Source: a virus (lineage: Duplodnaviria; Heunggongvirae; Uroviricota; Caudoviricetes). Taken from it: a stretch of DNA of 8,621 bases. The notes under the pieces were generated by a model, which was given only the letters and a program-made list of their open reading frames with translations, had not been told where the DNA came from and searched no databases. A program made the position numbers and the translations under genes. Below are positions 1-8,621 of this stretch, one piece after another (within the stretch, counting starts at the first letter, position 1; every line of letters starts with the position of its first letter). The stretch lies in IMG/VR virus record IMGVR_UViG_2645728091_000019; one strand, 5' to 3'.

Positions 1-1004
<1,004 letters not shown>

Positions 1005-1079
1005 CTTGGGTTTAGCAGATTCGATTTCTTTAACGGATAGAGGTTTGGTTTGTCTTGCCATTGCCGGGTTTCCATAGTT

Positions 1080-1440: not shown

Positions 1441-1745
1441 AAAAAAATTTTTTTTCGAAAGAACTGTTCACACTGTTCACCTTTCTTTTTTCTCCTTTTA
1501 TTTCAGTATGATAGGTGGTGAATAATGGGTGAAGGGTGAACATTCGATTCTTCACCTCCGGCATTCTGCTGGTGTGACTCATACCGGTGATTAATCCCCC
1601 GTACTGAAAATCACACAGGGAGAAAAAAGTTTTTTTTGATTTGATTGTTCACACTGTTCACCTTTCGTTTTTCTCTTTTAATTTCAGTGTGATAACGGGT
1701 GAATATACGGTGAAGGGTGAACAGTAGATTGTTCACCTTCGGGGG
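1441..1745. repeat. crr-like cis replication region: two ~120-bp direct repeats 181 bp apart, each carrying TGTTCACC/GGTGAACA iterons
   Basis: TGTTCACA+TGTTCACC doublets at 1465-1481 and 1646-1662; inverted GGTGAAGG/GGTGAACA copies at 1528-1542 and 1709-1723; further TGTTCACC at 1730-1737. The octamer is the P4 alpha-binding type I iteron (from memory). Confidence 0.75.
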
Positions 1746-1755
1746 ATGTCGGGAT

Positions 1756-1780
1756 AAAAAAAGACCGGCAGATGCCGGTC
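1756..1780 (-). terminator. Rho-independent terminator just downstream of alpha
   Basis: Minus strand: GACCGGC-AUCU-GCCGGUC (7-bp perfect stem) followed by seven U (complement of the A-run at 1756-1762), 17 nt after the alpha stop codon at 1797-1799. Confidence 0.6.
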
Positions 1781-1796
1781 AGATGAGTCATGATGG

Positions 1797-3167
1797 TCAG
1801 GTTGTCGCAGGGTCGTCACATTTTGGCAGCCAGTCGCCGTAGCTTTCCTCTTTCAGTGTCAGGTTGGTCTGTATCCCCTGTTTGGTATGGCGCTTCTCGT
1901 AATTCAGTCCGTATTCCTTCAGCATCACCGGTAGCCCCAGCCCGAACATTTTCAGACTGAGTACATTCCGGTAGCCGTTTGCCTCCATGTAGGCCAGATA
2001 GGCGTGATAGAGGTATTTACGGTAATTACGCGGGATGATACTGGCGTTCCCCATATACATGCCGCTGGTCTGCGGCAGGGTTTCCAGATAGCCGATAAAA
2101 TCAAACGTCGGGTCGGCATCCCGTTTGATGTTCAGCGCCTCGTCTGAGTTCTGCTGGGACTGAAGCAGTGACCGGGCGAGCATCGGGTCGCTGAATTTCT
2201 GCATCAGGTGACGCACGATGACCGCCAGCTCGCGGGTGATTTTGTCCTTAAGCTGCGGGTCGCGCTCCTGCGGGGCTATCTGTTCCGGGAAGTGAATAAT
2301 CACCCGCCGGCGTGACACGCCGCCGCTGCGGTCGGTGAAGCGCATCGGGTTATTGTTCACGGCCAGAATCACCGCCGGGATGTGCGTGGAGTACGCATCC
2401 CGGTATTTCGGGTCAACGGACACCGCATCGCCGCCGGTGATGGCCTTGAGTCCGGCTCCGTCGCCGCTCCATTTTTCCTGGTCCGGCAGGCGTATCAGTG
2501 AGAAGCCAGTTAACGCGGCACGTTCACGCGGGGATTCCAGCGTCTCGATGGTGGCCGACGTGGCGTTATCCTCCCCGGCCAGCAGGGTGGCTATTTCGGC
2601 CATGATACTTTTGCCGCTGCCGCCGGGACCGGTCACCTCCAGAAAGAGCTGCCAGTCGTAGCGGTTTGCCAGCACCATAAACAGTGCGGCCAGAATCACG
2701 TCGCGTTTTTCCGCACGGCCACCGGCGGCACGGTCAAGCCAGCGCCAGAACGCGGGGGCGTGGGTTTCCAGCGTTTCCCCTTCCACCGGTGGGGTGAAAT
2801 CCACATCGCACAGGGTGCGCATCCAGTGTGACGGACTGTGCGGGTGGAACGTGCCGCTCTGCGTGTCGAGCACGCCGTTACGAAAGCCAATCAGGCGGCG
2901 GGAGGGGGCTTCCTGCTGCGGAATAATCAGCTTCAGGGTGTCCACCACGGAGGCCACCTTCCCGGAGGAGAACGGCGCGCGCAGACGCTGAAACAGCCCG
3001 GCCACATCCCGGGCAAAGTCCTGTGGCGGCAGCACCTTCCAGACACCATTTTCATAGCGGGACAGAAGCTGGCCGTTGGCATCGACCGCGAGCGCCTCGC
3101 CGTAATGCTCATAGATACGCATGGCCTTTTCGCTGGTACTCATGGCGGAAAACTCCGCTTCGCTCAT
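1797..3167 (-). CDS. alpha: P4 alpha-type helicase / origin-binding portion (C-terminal 456 codons of the alpha frame)
   Basis: Walker A VTGPGGSGKS encoded around 2607-2637. Same reading frame as ORF 3258-4130. No Shine-Dalgarno upstream of ATG 3167. Confidence 0.75.
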   Translation of the reverse strand: MSEAEFSAMSTSEKAMRIYEHYGEALAVDANGQLLSRYENGVWKVLPPQDFARDVAGLFQRLRAPFSSGKVASVVDTLKLIIPQQEAPSRRLIGFRNGVLDTQSGTFHPHSPSHWMRTLCDVDFTPPVEGETLETHAPAFWRWLDRAAGGRAEKRDVILAALFMVLANRYDWQLFLEVTGPGGSGKSIMAEIATLLAGEDNATSATIETLESPRERAALTGFSLIRLPDQEKWSGDGAGLKAITGGDAVSVDPKYRDAYSTHIPAVILAVNNNPMRFTDRSGGVSRRRVIIHFPEQIAPQERDPQLKDKITRELAVIVRHLMQKFSDPMLARSLLQSQQNSDEALNIKRDADPTFDFIGYLETLPQTSGMYMGNASIIPRNYRKYLYHAYLAYMEANGYRNVLSLKMFGLGLPVMLKEYGLNYEKRHTKQGIQTNLTLKEESYGDWLPKCDDPATT

Positions 3168-3257
3168 GGTATCGAACGGGCTTTCAGCCGGTGGCCGGAT
3201 GGCATCGTAAATGGCCTTACGGGTGGCTTCCCCGCCGTACTGCGTGAAGGCATCATT

Positions 3258-4130
3258 TCAGTCACCGAAGACCGGCGGCAGGGCAACAACACCTTCACAC
3301 GCATCTGCGGCTGCGGCGGCTTTTTTCTGGCCGTCACCGCTGAGGTCACGGTCTGCGGCAAGGACAATCTGACAGGCCGGATGCTTCTGCCGGGCAAGGC
3401 TGGCCAGAGAAAGGAGGTTCACGGAAGAAAGCGCCACCATCACCGTTTCACCGGTCAGGTGATGCACGGTAAGTGCGGTCGCGTATCCCTCCGCTATCCA
3501 CAGACGTTTTCCGGCCTGATTCTGTCCTTCAAGGATGTGACAGGTGCCCCTGACCTGTCCGCCTTTCAGGGTGCGCTTACGGCCGTCAGCACTGATTAAC
3601 TGAAGGTTAACCAGTTCGCCGCTGTCGTCATACAGTGGCACCACAAGGTCACCGGCACGCCAGCTCACGCCACCGGCTCTGTGTGTGCCGGTCAGCATCC
3701 GGCATTCCCGGCCGGGAAAGCCCTTGCGGGTCAGGTAGGCGTTACCGGTTCCGGGACGGGTTTTCGCCATCAGGGTTTGTGCCAGTGCGGCGGCGTTCTT
3801 CCGGGCGGCTTCTGTTTCAGCACCGGCGGCGGCCGTCACTGCCGGGTCAGCCGGGGGCAGGCTGCCGGTCACGGCAGCCACCTTTGCGGCCGCGTCGGAC
3901 GGGGAAACACCAAACACCTTTTCAACCAGTTTCAGGCCGTCACCGGCACCACACTGATTGCAGTACCAGGTGCCGCGCCCCTCCCTGTCATCAAAACGGA
4001 AGCGGTCACTCCCGCCACAGACCGGACAGGGCTGATGACGGTTTTTCAGCACCTGAATCCCCAGCGCCGGGAGAATACGCGGCCAGTGGCCGAGTGCATG
4101 GCTGACGGTGGCGGTTACGTTCATTTTCAT
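3258..4130 (-). CDS. alpha: P4 alpha-type primase portion (N-terminal 290 codons), ending at an in-frame TGA
   Basis: Zinc-binding CPVCGG...YCNQCG near the N-terminus; TOPRIM-like EGYATAL and AADRDLSGDG. Strong RBS AAGGAG 9 nt upstream of ATG 4130. The stop is TGA (plus-strand tca at 3258-3260). Confidence 0.75.
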   Translation of the reverse strand: MKMNVTATVSHALGHWPRILPALGIQVLKNRHQPCPVCGGSDRFRFDDREGRGTWYCNQCGAGDGLKLVEKVFGVSPSDAAAKVAAVTGSLPPADPAVTAAAGAETEAARKNAAALAQTLMAKTRPGTGNAYLTRKGFPGRECRMLTGTHRAGGVSWRAGDLVVPLYDDSGELVNLQLISADGRKRTLKGGQVRGTCHILEGQNQAGKRLWIAEGYATALTVHHLTGETVMVALSSVNLLSLASLARQKHPACQIVLAADRDLSGDGQKKAAAAADACEGVVALPPVFGD

Positions 4131-4144
4131 GGTGTTGTTCTCCT

Positions 4145-4465
4145 TCAGTGCAGTACCGGCGCTTTTATGTGACGGGCACAGAGTTCATCCATCACAACCA
4201 GCCCGAGAAAGGACAGCGACGGCGCGGCCTTCAGGGGGCCGGATTCCATTAAATCTTCCAGCAGGGCACAGGCTATCTGACGCCCTTTTTCCTCACCGTG
4301 CTGGCGCAGATAAAAGCCTTCCAGCTCAGCGGCGATGGCCGCCTCCAGTGACTCAAGGGTGAGATGCGGGTAGCGGTGCTGACGTTCGCACACGGTCAGC
4401 CAGGCACAGGCGACAGCGCGACGGTAAAGGGCAGCGCGTAAGACGGGCGGTAAGGGTGTTTTCAT
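4145..4465 (-). CDS. cnr: cnr-like (P4 orf106) copy-number regulator
   Basis: 106-aa ORF immediately upstream of alpha. GGAGG 7 nt before its ATG; its TGA stop (4145-4147) overlaps the alpha RBS. Position and length match P4 cnr (memory). Confidence 0.7.
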
Positions 4466-4600
4466 TTGCTTTCCTCCCTGTGACAGATGACTGCATTCCG
4501 TGCCGGTTGCATTAACTGATAAGGCATATCTGCGTCTCCTGAAGACGTGCGTATCCCTGCGCGAATACGCACATTTAATTTTTCGGGTGTCGTTTTTTAA

Positions 4601-5056
4601 TTACAGATAATTGCGGTAACTGTTATCCGGGGTGGTTTCCGGGTCAGGCTCCGTGCGGGGAATTTCCCGCCATTCCCGCGCTACCGGTGCTGCCCGGCTG
4701 ACCGGAACAGGGTCCTGCGGGTAAATATCCAGATATTTTTCCCGCCATTTCTGTAATTCCGGGTCTCCGGCCATTTCTTTCAGTACCGCATGCCGGTTTA
4801 CGGGGCTGCGTTTGAACAGGTCAGGACGGTCACAGGTAAATTCCCGCAGAAAACGCCCCAGCGGGATGTCTGTGGTGCGCCCGTCAGCGAGGATACGCAC
4901 AAGGATACTGAATTTACGGCGGTACGGATTCCAGACAATGTCCGGGCAGCGGTACGGCATTTCCCACGGAATACCGTCTTCCAGAATGCCGACCACGGCC
5001 ACATCGGGAAAACCGGCAGAACGGTAAATCTCACCGGGCTGGGGAAAATCAAACAT
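4601..5056 (-). CDS. P4 orf151-like protein of unknown function
   Basis: 151-aa ORF. Its start overlaps the stop of the upstream epsilon-like ORF (ATGTTTGA), indicating translational coupling within the leftward operon. Confidence 0.65.
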   Translation of the reverse strand: MFDFPQPGEIYRSAGFPDVAVVGILEDGIPWEMPYRCPDIVWNPYRRKFSILVRILADGRTTDIPLGRFLREFTCDRPDLFKRSPVNRHAVLKEMAGDPELQKWREKYLDIYPQDPVPVSRAAPVAREWREIPRTEPDPETTPDNSYRNYL

Positions 5057-5336
5057 GCGTCCTGTCTCCCCGGTCTTTCTGCTGGGCGAGAAAATCGCGG
5101 CACAGGCCTTTGGCTTTCAGCTCATTCAGCACAAAATCAATATCTTCATTCAGGTAGCTGAAAATATGCGGAATGTAGAGCTGATGCAGACCGGAGAGTT
5201 CACGGTGAATCAAATCACCCCCAACAAACCGGGATACGGCGCTGGCGCGGTTGAGCTTATGGTAAGCCTCAATGCTGAGGTGTTCACGGGCGTCATGACG
5301 TGCTGAGACGGTCTGAGGGGCTTTTTTATTACGCAC
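5049..5336 (-). CDS. epsilon: epsilon-like protein (P2-repressor antagonist in P4), 95 aa with GTG start
   Basis: The ORF track extends this frame to 5492, but the only start with a ribosome-binding site is GTG at 5334-5336 (GGAGG, 6-nt spacer). No SD precedes the in-frame ATGs at 5417 and 5381, and the upstream extension is Cys/Pro/Val-rich and atypical. Assignment is by position and length. Confidence 0.55.
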
Positions 5337-5526
5337 GGGACACCTCCACCACCGGCAGACGGGCAGCAAGGGAGAGCACATAGTCACGGACAAGGGAACG
5401 GCGGGCGCTGCGTTCATCACCGGCGACGGTGCGAAGCATACAGATACGAGGATGACGGTCTGCGCGACGGACAGCCGCAAACACAAAGACAAATTCAGGG
5501 TGTGAGGGGGTAAGGGTTGTAGCCAT
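5329..5526 (-). CDS. 65-aa first ORF of the leftward operon (position of P4 kil; identity unconfirmed)
   Basis: ATG at 5526 preceded by GGAGG with 8-nt spacer. Its stop overlaps the epsilon GTG start region. It is the 3' end of a spurious-looking 214-codon frame on the ORF track. Confidence 0.45.
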
Positions 5527-5556
5527 GATGGCAGCCTCCGTTAGATAGCAGGTTAC

Positions 5557-5852
5557 GCTATCGCCGGAGTTCTCACGCTCGATGGCGATAGCCCAGACGG
5601 GGGTGAGAATACCGGCTCTAACGGATACCGGCCAGCCCGGAGGCTGCCCCGCCTGAGCTACCATTGACTCTGCGGCATAATGAGCGGACGCGGGCAGGAT
5701 GCACGGAATGCCATCTGCACGACTGACCACACACCACACCATAATCTGGCGCTCTGTGGCGTTGATTGCGACACAAAAAAAGACGCATGGCGCGTCATAT
5801 GTCGCCGTTAGATTGCTCGGGTTCTCACGCCCGGCTGCCGATTTTGCGGCAG
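5557..5852 (-). promoter_or_regulatory. Untranslated immunity leader with seqA-like and seqC-like target blocks and an internal hairpin plus U7
   Basis: 10-mer GTTCTCACGC directly repeated at 5569-5578 and 5821-5830. The downstream copy sits in the loop of a 9-bp perfect hairpin (GCTATCGCC 5557-5565 / GGCGATAGC 5584-5592). A GACGC-GCCAU-GCGUC hairpin followed by U7 lies at 5775-5796 (minus strand). Confidence 0.5.
5590..5660 (-). ncRNA. Candidate CI-RNA-like immunity RNA (seqB-like block); boundaries approximate
   Basis: The leftward transcript carries ...GGUAUUCUCACCCCCGUCUGGGCUAUCGCC..., complementary to GCGUGAGAAC blocks upstream (5821-5830) and downstream (5569-5578). This matches the seqA/seqB/seqC logic of P4 immunity (memory). 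Ends cannot be mapped from sequence. Confidence 0.3.
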
Positions 5853-5853
5853 C

Positions 5854-5895
5854 GGAAAAACTATATCCGCAAATGCCGGAAAAAGGCAAGCCAGA
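5854..5895 (-). promoter_or_regulatory. Sigma70-type promoter for the leftward operon (PLE-like)
   Basis: Minus strand TTGCCT (complement of 5884-5889), 18-bp spacer, TATAGT (complement of 5860-5865). Predicted start near 5853, about 330 nt upstream of the first ORF. Confidence 0.45.
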
Positions 5896-5924
5896 AAAAG
5901 GGAGTTTTTGCAGAGCGGGCATCA

Positions 5925-6191
5925 TCATGCGTCGTACCCCCGTTTGCGTCCGGCAATGCGCCCGGCCATCCATGCAGTGACTTCAGAGTGCAGCCAGGCC
6001 ACATTTTTACCGCCAAGACTCACCTGCGGCGGAAATTCCCCCTTACGGATGAGTTCATAGATGGTCGAGCGTGACAGGCCGCACAGGTGCATCACTTCCG
6101 GCAGACGTAAAAAACGCTCCTGCGTGATGTCCGGCAGCGGCATCAGTGGCGTCACAGGGGCGGGAGACGGGGAAGAAAAAACAGCTTGCAT
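5925..6191 (-). CDS. vis: Vis-like AlpA-family small HTH regulator/excisionase (88 aa)
   Basis: 88-aa ORF with an AlpA/Xis-like HTH core ([27 protein letters not shown]). GAGG 8 nt upstream of the ATG. Lies downstream of a TGT-N12-ACA site, as expected for a late leftward promoter. Confidence 0.65.
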
Positions 6192-6293
6192 CGGGCTACC
6201 TCGTTAATGTCCATACAGCACCGGATAAGTCCGTCCGGCTTCGGGTAGCGCTTTATTTTGTGAATATTTTCAGCAGACGCAACAGGGGGGATT

Positions 6294-6311
6294 TGTTCCG
6301 GCAGCCTTACA
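6294..6311 (-). promoter_or_regulatory. TGT-N12-ACA dyad: Delta/Ogr-type late activator site for the leftward late promoter (PLL-like)
   Basis: TGT 6294-6296, 12 nt, ACA 6309-6311. Centre is ~110 bp upstream of the vis ATG, compatible with a -55 activator site and a ~55-nt leader. Confidence 0.5.
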
Positions 6312-6470
6312 ATTGCTGTGTGTTTTTTGCACATCAACGCCAGATAGCTTTAAAACGCTCTGGAAGGAGCTGGAAAAAATTATAGTGAAATACAAATTGT
6401 TTTTTTCTTATTTATTTCAGTTAATTAATAAAAATAAAAAGTAATAAACAGCACAAAAAGTCCATGAACG

Positions 6471-6575
6471 GGTGAACAGTGGTGAACAGACGGTGAACAG
6501 TCATTACTGCGATTGTTCACCATTTAATTTACTGTATTACTTATCTTTTTTATTAAGGTGAACAGAGGTGAACAG
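6471..6575. repeat. ori-like iteron cluster: five GGTGAACAG copies and one inverted TGTTCACC, flanked by very AT-rich DNA
   Basis: GGTGAACA at 6471, 6481, 6492, 6557 and 6567; TGTTCACC at 6514-6521; AT-rich tracts at 6360-6460 and 6522-6556. Same octamer as in crr, about 4.8 kb away. Confidence 0.7.
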
Positions 6576-6653
6576 TAAAATATAAAAAAACAAACAGTAA
6601 GCCGGTTTTTCCTGCGACCTTTTCCTGGCTTGCCGGTCTGAGGATGAGTCTCC

Positions 6654-6671
6654 TGTGTCAGGGCTGGCACA
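6654..6671 (+). promoter_or_regulatory. TGT-N12-ACA dyad: Delta/Ogr-type late activator site for the sid promoter (Psid-like)
   Basis: TGT 6654-6656, 12 nt, ACA 6669-6671. Centre is ~82 bp upstream of the sid ATG, giving a predicted start near 6717. Confidence 0.55.
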
Positions 6672-6743
6672 TCTGCAATGCGTCGTGTTGTTGTCCGGTG
6701 TACGTCACAATTTTCTTAACCTGAAGTGACGAGGAGCCGGAAA

Positions 6744-7478
6744 ATGTCTGACAACACCATCCCTGAATATCTGCAACCCGCGCTGGCACAACTGGAAAAG
6801 GCCAGAGCCGCCCATCTTGAGAACGCCCGCCTGATGGATGAGACCGTCACGGCCATTGAACGGGCAGAGCAGGAAAAAAATGCGCTGGCGCAGGCCGACG
6901 GAAACGACGCTGACGACTGGCGCACGGCCTTTCGTGCAGCCGGTGGTGTCCTGAGCGACGAGCTGAAACAGCGCCACATTGAGCGCGTGGCACGCCGGGA
7001 GCTGGTACAGGAATATGACAATCTGGCCGTGGTGCTGAATTTTGAACGCGAACGCCTGAAAGGGGCGTGTGACAGCACGGCCACCGCCTACCGGAAGGCA
7101 CATCATCACCTTCTGAGTCTGTATGCAGAGCATGAGCTGGAACACGCCCTGAATGAAACCTGTGAGGCGCTTGTCCGGGCAATGCATCTGAGCATTCTGG
7201 TACAGGAAAATCCGCTCGCCAACACCACCGGCCATCAGGGCTACGTCGCACCGGAAAAGGCTGTCATGCAGCAGGTGAAATCATCGCTGGAACAGAAAAT
7301 TAAACAGATGCAAATCAGCCTCACCGGCGAGCCGGTTCTCCGGCTGACCGGGCTGTCAGCGGCAACACTCCCGCACATGGATTATGAGGTGGCAGGCACA
7401 CCGGCACAGCGCAAGGTGTGGCAGGACAAAATAGACCAGCAGGGTGCAGAGCTTAAGGCCAGAGGACTGCTGTCATGA
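6744..7478 (+). CDS. sid: Sid-like capsid size-determination (external scaffold) protein, 244 aa
   Basis: ATG at 6744 with GAGGAG 7 nt upstream; the ORF-track start at 6726 is an upstream GTG with no RBS. Coiled-coil-like, charge-rich sequence. Its stop overlaps the delta start (ATGA). Length matches P4 Sid (memory). Confidence 0.8.
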   Translation: MSDNTIPEYLQPALAQLEKARAAHLENARLMDETVTAIERAEQEKNALAQADGNDADDWRTAFRAAGGVLSDELKQRHIERVARRELVQEYDNLAVVLNFERERLKGACDSTATAYRKAHHHLLSLYAEHELEHALNETCEALVRAMHLSILVQENPLANTTGHQGYVAPEKAVMQQVKSSLEQKIKQMQISLTGEPVLRLTGLSAATLPHMDYEVAGTPAQRKVWQDKIDQQGAELKARGLLS

Positions 7479-7975
7479 TTTACTGCCCGTCGTGTGGACA
7501 TGTTGCTCACACTCGTCGCGCACATTTCATGGACGATGGCACCAAGATAATGATTGCACAGTGCCGGAATATTTATTGCTCTGCGACATTTGAAGCGAGT
7601 GAAAGCTTTTTCTCTGACAGTAAAGATTCAGGAATGGAATACATTTCAGGCAAACAGAGATACCGCGATTCACTGACGTCAGCCTCCGGCAGTATGAAAC
7701 GCCCGAAAAGAATGCTTGTTACCGGATATTGTTGTCGGAGATGTAAAGGCCTTGCACTGTCAAGAACATCGCGGCGTCTGTCTCAGGAAGTCACCGAGCG
7801 TTTTTATGTGTGCACGGATCCGGGCTGTGGTCTGGTGTTTAAAACGCTTCAGACCATCACCCGCTTCATTGTCCGCCCGGTCACGCCGGACGAACTGGCA
7901 GAACGCCTGCATGAAAAACAGGAACTGCCGCCAGTACGGTTAAAAACACAATCATATTCGCTGCGTCTGGAATGA
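7475..7975 (+). CDS. delta: Delta-like late transcriptional activator (tandem Ogr-type zinc-finger protein), 166 aa
   Basis: Two Ogr-like Cys4 modules (CPSCGH...CRNIYC and CCRRC...CTDPGC). Translationally coupled to sid. Length matches P4 Delta (memory). Confidence 0.8.
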   Translation: MIYCPSCGHVAHTRRAHFMDDGTKIMIAQCRNIYCSATFEASESFFSDSKDSGMEYISGKQRYRDSLTSASGSMKRPKRMLVTGYCCRRCKGLALSRTSRRLSQEVTERFYVCTDPGCGLVFKTLQTITRFIVRPVTPDELAERLHEKQELPPVRLKTQSYSLRLE

Positions 7976-8048
7976 GGGCTGCCGGTTAACCCCGGCCGTC
8001 GCCGCACACCGTATTTTTATTCTTCAGCATGATGAGAAAGAGATAACG

Positions 8049-8621
8049 ATGGAGAGCACAGCCTTACAGCAGGCCTTTGACACCTGTCAGAATAACAAAG
8101 CAGCATGGCTGCAACGCAAAAATGAGCTGGCTGCGGCCGAACAGGAATATCTGCGGCTTCTGTCCGGGGAAGGCAGAAACGTCAGTCGCCTGGACGAATT
8201 ACGCAATATTATCGAAGTCAGAAAATGGCAGGTGAATCAGGCCGCCGGTCGTTATATTCGTTCGCATGAAGCCGTTCAGCACATCAGCATCCGCGACCGG
8301 CTGAATGATTTTATGCAGCAGCACGGCACAGCACTGGCGGCGGCACTGGCACCGGAGCTGATGGGATACAGTGAGCTGACGGCCATTGCCCGAAACTGTG
8401 CCATACAGCGTGCCACAGATGCCCTGCGTGAAGCCCTTCTGTCCTGGCTTGCGAAGGGGGAAAAAATTAATTATTCCGCACAGGATAGTGACATTTTAAC
8501 GACCATCGGATTCAGGCCTGACGCGGCTTCGGTGGATGACAGCCGTGAAAAATTCACCCCTGCGCAGAACATGATTTTTTCGCGTAAAAGTGCGCAACTG
8601 GAATCACATCAGTCTGTGTAA
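8049..8621 (+). CDS. psu: Psu-like polarity-suppression / capsid decoration protein, 190 aa
   Basis: 190-aa ORF last in the sid-delta operon, ending with TAA at the final three bases of the window. Length and position match P4 Psu (memory). Confidence 0.8.
   Translation: MESTALQQAFDTCQNNKAAWLQRKNELAAAEQEYLRLLSGEGRNVSRLDELRNIIEVRKWQVNQAAGRYIRSHEAVQHISIRDRLNDFMQQHGTALAAALAPELMGYSELTAIARNCAIQRATDALREALLSWLAKGEKINYSAQDSDILTTIGFRPDAASVDDSREKFTPAQNMIFSRKSAQLESHQSV

Follow-up and report, generated by a model that had tools for sequence, protein, structure and literature searches.

The 552-bp intergenic region between the divergent genes vis and sid (6192–6743) in the analyzed window, by which we mean the whole 8,621-nt stretch of DNA, is very probably the orthologue of the late-control and origin region of satellite phage P4, with two outward-directed Ogr/Delta promoters bracketing the replication origin. 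The preliminary description had proposed a comparison with the PLL-ori-Psid region of P4, and side-by-side comparison bore this identification out. The corresponding part of P4 (about nt 9030–9583) contains the same genes, vis, sid, delta and psu, its intergenic region also measures 552 bp, and in the P4 record the annotated rep_origin, six type 1 repeats, ORF88 (vis) and sid all fall at positions matching those in the window (around vis–sid, window coordinate = P4 coordinate − 2839). No difference separates the two sequences between 6529 and the start codon of sid, a stretch that covers the −10 region, the leader and both Psid dyads. In the PLL dyad, three spacer positions differ between P4 (TGTTCAGGCTGTCTTACA) and the window (TGTTCCGGCAGCCTTACA), while both half-sites and the position are the same. 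The segment 6330–6445 has been replaced (about 50–80% identity), and with it the three tandem Cox boxes of P4 are gone. Divergent late promoters flanking ori have long been established for P4; what is somewhat new is confined to the replaced Cox-box segment.

The arrangement restates textbook P4 biology, in which either Ogr from the helper or Delta from the satellite switches on two outward promoters bracketing the satellite origin. Applied to the window, PLL, a sigma-70 promoter dependent on an activator, would transcribe vis and the early/immunity operon to the left, and Psid, of the same type, would transcribe sid-delta-psu to the right. Helper Ogr or the element’s own zinc-finger protein Delta would bind a dyad ~55 nt upstream of each start and recruit RNA polymerase, with Psid possibly using an additional exact dyad over its −10 region. 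The ori between the promoters would consist of six alpha iterons and an AT-rich tract, and the segment between ori and the PLL dyad would correspond to the place where P4 has P2 Cox boxes, by which PLL is turned on when a helper infects. The Cox-box array is the means by which a P4 prophage senses an incoming P2. P2 late promoters, which are transcribed in an Ogr-dependent manner, have TGT-N12-ACA as their consensus (PMC3931495), and Delta is an Ogr homologue and late-gene activator (PMC7552001, PMC8628076). Vis also regulates the P4 late promoters (Polo et al. 1996, as cited elsewhere).

The likeness to P4 extends along the element. Window positions 1442–8621 aligned with nt 4291–11460 of P4 (X51522 / NC_001609) at 97.7% identity using megablast, and identity per 100 bp was 98–100% throughout, except across 6300–6500 (70% and 82%). 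The products of vis, sid, delta and psu each differ from their P4 counterparts by one to three residues. The gene vis (5925–6191, minus strand), first in the PLL transcript, encodes an AlpA-type helix-turn-helix excisionase/regulator (Pfam Phage_AlpA, E = 7e-21; P4 record) with one residue different from P4 ORF88. On the other side, sid (6744–7478, plus strand) is the capsid size determination gene heading the Psid operon; its product is one residue off P4 Sid and returned 88 homologues. It is followed by the late activator gene delta (7475–7975, plus strand), which matches Pfam Ogr_Delta in two stretches, and by psu (8049–8621; Pfam Psu and P4 record). Delta is intact, with two CX2CX22CX4C zinc-finger motifs at residues 4–35 and 87–118, and a cognate activator for the two promoters is therefore encoded in the element itself.

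The replication module differs in its state. The gene for alpha, the primase-helicase and origin-binding protein (1797–4130, minus strand; Pfam primase zinc ribbon, Toprim and D5 helicase domains), is interrupted by a stop at codon 291 (W291*, TGG to TGA at window positions 3258–3260), which splits it into open reading frames of 290 and 456 amino acids and precedes the D5-type helicase/C-terminal part. This copy thus lacks the intact alpha of a P4-type alpha-dependent origin. In place of the int/attP of P4 stands an IS100 element of the IS21 family (window 1–1005, with an IstB reading frame at 276–938). The second cis-acting replication region, crr, is present at 1442–1741, homologous to P4 4291–4590 where it is annotated as such, and contains seven type 1 iteron cores (TGTTCAC/GTGAACA), as in P4-type origins. 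With alpha truncated and int replaced by IS100, the replicon is probably dead, and judged from the sequence the copy is probably a decaying prophage in which the late module, comprising vis, sid, delta, psu and the two promoters, is intact and the replicon inactive. The chief value of the region lies in the correct annotation of a P4-like prophage remnant.

Exact TGT-N12-ACA dyads occur at both places named in the preliminary description. The PLL dyad, TGTTCCGGCAGCCTTACA, lies at 6294–6311 (center 6302.5), and the Psid dyad, TGTGTCAGGGCTGGCACA, at 6654–6671 (center 6662.5) and is identical in P4; both are putative Ogr/Delta sites. A third exact dyad, TGTCCGGTGTACGTCACA, had been overlooked: it occupies 6692–6709, 38 bp downstream of the first Psid site, with its center at about −17.5 and overlapping the −10 sequence CACAAT (6706–6711), and it is identical in P4 and in the related locus L003. 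It fits a second Delta site reported near −18. Julien and Calendar (1995) reportedly found Delta footprints at −55 in all six promoters and additionally at −18 in the two P4 promoters; the −55 and −18 assignments for P4 follow from that report together with analogy to P2. PLL has no second exact dyad near −18, the nearest sequences being TTT-N12-ACA at 6267–6284 and TGT-N13-AGA at 6259–6277. The preliminary description also had the dyads facing outward. The outward direction holds, as given by the flanking genes and the −10 regions, but the dyad is symmetric and in itself directionless. Separately, a CRP site in TGTGTCAGGGCTGGCACA was considered and rejected by inspection, as its second half-site does not fit TCACA at 6-bp spacing.

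Because the pattern fixes only six bases, we weighed the alternative that these matches are chance intergenic occurrences and that the true promoters lie elsewhere. Counts over the whole window leave room for it: five exact dyads were present against 2.06 expected, and 15 of 200 shuffles reached at least five, an excess that is not significant alone. The positions of the matches speak against it, as three of the five fall within the 552-bp vis–sid intergenic region. Three dyads inside 420 bp were seen in 26 of 2,000 dinucleotide shuffles of the window, and at least three in the shuffled intergenic region in 7 of 5,000 shuffles (0.24 expected). Clustering of the three dyads is beyond chance.

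Further evidence that the dyads belong to promoters came from their spacing relative to the −10 regions. On the minus strand, the predicted PLL core promoter and vis leader span 6192–6271, with a −10 region, TCACAAAAT, at plus-strand positions 6254–6262 and, by geometry, a start at about 6247 ± 3, seven nucleotides after CAAAAT. Such a start agrees with a location of PLL ~400 nt upstream of PLE, which we take to be its position in P4. On the plus strand, P2 geometry would place the Psid start at about 6718, six nucleotides after CACAAT, followed by a sid leader (6718–6743) with the Shine-Dalgarno sequence GAGGAG at 6732–6737. Both dyad centers then lie 55.5 nt upstream of the starts predicted from the −10 regions, a shared geometry that speaks against chance matches. 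The −10 regions of PLL and Psid both read TCACAA(A)AT, and neither promoter has a usable −35. A promoter scan of 6100–6800 found no sigma-70 consensus promoter (0 versus 0.8 in shuffles), as expected for activator-dependent promoters with weak cores. Neither P4 record annotates promoters or start sites, and full-text searches for literature on Psid and PLL mapping returned secondary mentions only.

The late promoters of P2 provided a reference, as dyad centers could be computed from the late starts and activator sites given in its RefSeq record. These lie at −55.5 (PO), about −57 (PV) and −57.5 (PF) from the annotated starts, and PP/PO, PV and PF thus resemble the window in combining an activator dyad at −55 to −57 with a poor core promoter. 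PP and PO are, like PLL and Psid, a divergent pair, and the PO/PP site begins with the same eight nucleotides as the Psid site, TGTGTCAG. They differ in sharing one central site, whereas the window has two sites 360 bp apart with the origin between them. P2 also has no second site over a −10 region, and its late promoter sites are imperfect versions of TGT-N12-ACA: PO/PP and PF keep five of six half-site bases and PV has N11 spacing. P2 does contain five exact matches, but none is located at a late promoter, which is in keeping with chance occurrence of the pattern. Since P2’s own late promoters miss it, TGT-N12-ACA is a loose consensus and by itself a poor predictor.

Conservation among P4-like loci bears on the same question. 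We fetched 19 loci via Sid homologues from Klebsiella, Raoultella, Citrobacter, Enterobacter, Scandinavium and others, with Sid 57–67% identical to that of the window, except for L003, which is near-identical. In all 13 loci that include vis, vis and sid diverge from an intergenic stretch of 529–560 bp in which GTGAACA iterons keep the same offsets. Of the 19 loci, 18 have an exact TGT-N12-ACA 85–91 nt upstream of sid, counting L017 after its start codon was corrected by alignment; the remaining locus, L007, is too short upstream. The Psid dyads share the consensus TGTGCCA-N4-TGCCACA, with fixed half-sites and a variable center, the signature of a protein-binding dyad. Psid thus keeps its site in position and in both half-sites across elements whose Sid proteins have diverged considerably, and the sequence as a whole is orthologous to P4. 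The conservation data largely refute a chance origin of the dyads, which we regard as highly improbable.

Other parts of the region are conserved to different degrees. The −18 Psid site is exact only in the P4 lineage, and distant relatives carry a degenerate TGT-N12-AGA. At the position of the PLL dyad, 8 of 12 diverse relatives have TGT-N11/13-ACA, a match expected by chance at a rate of about 4% per 60 nt, and the other four lack it; conservation of PLL is therefore partial, N12 spacing is confined to the P4 lineage, and the site falls where the intergenic region is variable. Within 12 diverse P4-like loci, the PLL core and vis leader (6192–6271) formed the best-conserved intergenic block, at 0.65–1.00 identity per 10 nt. 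Further conserved blocks are 6472–6600 (iterons), 6612–6621, the Psid half-sites and 6682–6691, while 6272–6470 varies across relatives. In summary of what these P4-like satellites (L004–L021) have in common with the window, they share divergent vis and sid, the iteron offsets and the Psid dyad upstream of sid, and differ in the PLL and −18 Psid sites as well as in lineage-specific boxes upstream of PLL, for example TGGCAAACG, ATTGGCC and GTTTGCCAGC. Constraint across Enterobacteriaceae is thus seen on the Psid half-sites, the PLL core, the iterons and the block 6612–6621.

For the conserved stretch 6597–6640, we considered likeness to crr and dropped it, as ori and crr share iteron arrays only.

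Between the two dyads, the preliminary description placed six alpha-type iterons and AT-rich DNA, and both are there. The iterons span 6471–6575 (TGTTCACC, or GGTGAACAG on the other strand), with five direct copies of GGTGAACAG at 6471, 6481, 6492, 6557 and 6567 and one inverted copy at 6513–6521. They correspond one to one to the ‘ori type 1 repeats’ of the P4 annotation, also six in number, and are identical in sequence, as in a P4-type origin. According to Ziegelin et al. 1993, as cited in PMC8628076, the alpha primase-helicase binds such type 1 iterons. The AT-rich tract at 6375–6449 has 10–14% GC, lies inside the P4 rep_origin annotation and presumably serves unwinding; GC content over 6500–6599 is 26–28%. 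Rfam gave no matches inside the vis–sid intergenic region. What the account of the interval had omitted is the segment that in P4 carries the P2 Cox boxes and is replaced here. The origin sequence belongs to the P4-type family, yet this copy is probably not self-replicating.

The preliminary description further suggested that alpha binding could affect late promoter activity or the reverse. Such coupling of replication and late transcription, with alpha at the iterons and Ogr/Delta-RNA polymerase at PLL and Psid influencing each other, is argued from proximity: the iteron array stops 78 bp short of the Psid dyad, and 160 bp separate the PLL dyad from the first iteron. The compact layout is also kept in all relatives examined, although a separate need for each element explains this conservation equally well. 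The literature searched contained no paper, and the computations gave no result, bearing on an interaction of alpha with these promoters. Late transcription of P4 can also be switched on from plasmid constructs when no replication takes place, which counts against coupling. In the present copy, the premature stop at codon 291 means that its own alpha cannot take part, and alpha would have to be supplied in trans. Functional coupling of alpha and the late promoters is thus unsupported, and we consider it improbable.

We then turn to the one part of the region that departs from P4. In P4, the three ‘ori type 2 repeats’ (P4 9176–9205; ACTTAAAGTC, ATTTAAAGCC and ACTTAAAGCA) match the Cox-box consensus TTAAA(G/C)NC(A/C) at 8/8, 8/8 and 7/8 positions, the boxes being located at P4 9180, 9190 and 9200. 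This consensus and the box spacing have been described (PMC3936717), and P2 Cox binds upstream of PLL and activates it via boxes 10–11 bp apart (PMC3936717). The equivalent segment of the window (6330–6420) is 70% identical to P4, compared with 98–100% in the flanks, and contains CTGGAAGGAG and CTGGAAAAAA. It shares with the P4 array the location upstream of PLL and, with the P2 Cox-box arrays in general (P2 Pe-Pc, P2 attP and upstream of P4 PLL), a roughly 10-bp periodicity. It departs from the P2 Cox-box consensus in having one reversed 7/8 box, at 6345, in place of the three tandem boxes of P4, and so lacks the several boxes at 10–11-bp spacing that characterize a P2 Cox-responsive region. 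Its closest counterpart was an SI7/WPhi-type switch region.

That counterpart emerged from aligning box segments (intergenic +126 to +215) to C-cox switch regions taken from twelve P2-like phages and from three E. coli prophages. Scores were judged against shuffles and against 650 real 150-nt windows from helper loci, the whole P2 genome included. As a positive control, P4 was compared with the P2 Pe-Pc switch, which ranked first of the 650 (score 14.0, z = 5.3); across the Cox boxes the two agree at 27 of 34 positions. The segment from the window had no match in P2 (p = 0.86). Its best hit of the 650 was the C-cox switch of Salmonella phage SI7 (score 14.5, z = 6.9; next-best 12.0), where 19 of 22 positions are identical between AAACGCTCTGGAAGGAGCTGGA in the window and AAACGGTCTGCAAGGAGTTGGA in SI7, a score reached by zero to one of 1,000 shuffles. 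SI7 encodes a Cox protein of the WPhi-like group that shares 45% identity with P2 Cox.

These data are suggestive of a segment replacement whose best match is the SI7 Cox operator region. On this basis, ~6330–6420 may be an exchanged helper-sensing module that mimics a WPhi/SI7-type Cox operator, a reading that would add to the orthology with P4 and that we advance tentatively, at somewhat less than even chance. Several observations point this way. The type 2 repeats of P4 are Cox boxes that best match the Pe-Pc switch of its helper P2, while the window has no P2 boxes and best matches SI7. Every distant lineage has its own ~10-bp tandem repeats at that position. L003 combines the PLL dyad of the window with the three tandem Cox boxes of P4, and this mosaic indicates that the box segment recombines as a module. 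E. coli commonly carries both satellite alleles, with the window allele of 6312–6460 in 373 of 5,426 complete genomes (at least 80% coverage) and the P4 allele in 436, as well as both Cox classes. Helper-specific arrays are plausible because WPhi Cox fails to activate P4 and recognizes different repeats (PMC5009727).

Weighing against an exchanged module, the case depends on one 22-nt match, and the segment matched WPhi and three WPhi-like E. coli prophages weakly or non-significantly (p = 0.04–0.8). It contains two clear repeat units only, and Cox/Apl proteins need at least three adjacent sites. Real-sequence background is also heavy-tailed: the segment of L016 scored 17 against an unrelated P2 coding region. 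The segment might instead be merely a fast-evolving spacer of the origin. A related candidate, the match of L016-type boxes to the switch of Enterobacter phage T5282H (p = 0.005 against shuffles), was dropped, since that unrelated P2 coding region outscored it. A BLAST search of all phages with the 75-nt variable segment returned noise only, with hits to tail genes of Listeria, Vibrio and Klebsiella phages.

On the same evidence, we offer as a possible but less than even proposition that the stretch from the PLL dyad to the iterons is a swappable helper-recognition cassette, in which P4 would mimic the P2 operator, the window a WPhi/SI7-type operator, and other lineages other boxes. If true, this element would have its PLL turned on by another class of helper, and satellites would tune which helper’s early protein wakes them by swapping an array of ~100 bp. 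The array would then be a sequence-level determinant of satellite–helper specificity that can be read from genomes. As an observation in its own right, the Cox-box array is the most variable part of the vis–sid region.

In addition to the dyads that mark the presumed Ogr/Delta activator sites of the two outward-facing late promoters (PLL, 6294-6311; Psid, 6654-6671), the window contains a third exact TGT-N12-ACA dyad at 6692-6709 (TGTCCGGTGTACGTCACA), which lies 38 bp 3' of the Psid dyad, where it overlaps the Psid -10 region. The equivalent dyad in phage P4 is identical, whereas distant P4-like relatives carry TGT-N12-AGA at this position. In phage P2, none of the annotated late-promoter activator sites (3057-3087, 10239-10266 and 17555-17583) is an exact TGT-N12-ACA; the PO/PP and PF sites end in CCA, and the PV site has N11 spacing. 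All five exact matches in P2 are located away from these annotated sites.

The segment upstream of PLL differs from that of P4. P4 carries three tandem Cox boxes at 9176-9205, labelled ‘ori type 2 repeats’ in its annotation, while the equivalent window segment (6330-6420) consists of unrelated sequence with CTGGAAGGAG and CTGGAAAAAA in place of these boxes. The closest match to this segment was the C-cox switch region of Salmonella phage SI7, a member of the WPhi-like Cox group (19 of 22 positions), and the window allele is carried by ~373 complete Escherichia coli genomes. Tandem repeats of ~10 bp also occur upstream of PLL in the distant P4-like loci (L004-L021), ~120-215 nt 5' of the vis start codon, and are lineage-specific. 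Examples include a TGGCAAACG-type, an ATTGGCC-type and, in L010, three copies of GTTTGCCAGC, which is the inverted form of the TGGCAAACG-type motif; comparison of these repeats with the sampled helpers yielded no convincing match. A further P4-like element with a 100% identical Sid, L003, combines the PLL dyad of the window with the Cox boxes of P4 and has one altered iteron. This 6.8-kb contig (URND01000141.1) is labelled as an uncultured Clostridiales MAG and is almost certainly an Enterobacteriaceae contig that was mis-binned.

A block at 6597-6640, located 3' of the final iteron and 5' of the Psid dyad, is kept in distant P4-like elements, especially at 6612-6621. The block contains TTTTCCTGCGACCTTTTCCTGGC with the direct repeat TTTTCCTG and had no counterpart in crr, the second cis-acting replication region (1442-1741). 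The block could represent a Vis site, an upstream element of Psid or a part of ori.

The alpha primase-helicase gene is free of indels relative to P4 alpha, with a nonsense change (TGG to TGA) at codon 291 (3258-3260) that splits it into two ORFs (290 and 456 aa) and probably rules out autonomous replication of the element. The window also has two insertions compared to P4, one of 1 bp within crr (1607) and one of 9 bp (AGTCATGAT, 1786-1794) in the interval that separates crr from the alpha stop codon. P4 homology begins no earlier than crr, at 1442. The left end is occupied by IS100 of the IS21 family (1-1005) with its IstB ORF (276-938), and in other E. coli genomes, integrase annotations span the equivalent of the intervening sequence (1005-1442); IS100, therefore, seems to have truncated the int/attP side of the element.

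Downstream of vis, Rfam searches identified on the minus strand the P4 immunity RNA of the C4 family (5581-5668, 74.5 bits), isrK (5776-5853, 72 bits) and the C4 target a1b1 (5814-5866, 49.5 bits), indicating that an RNA-based immunity system is present. A 214-aa Ash-family ORF on the same strand (5329-5973), which includes the former ‘cI’ frame (137 aa in P4) and overlaps both the CI RNA and the 3' end of vis, probably reflects an ORF-calling artefact across the RNA immunity region.
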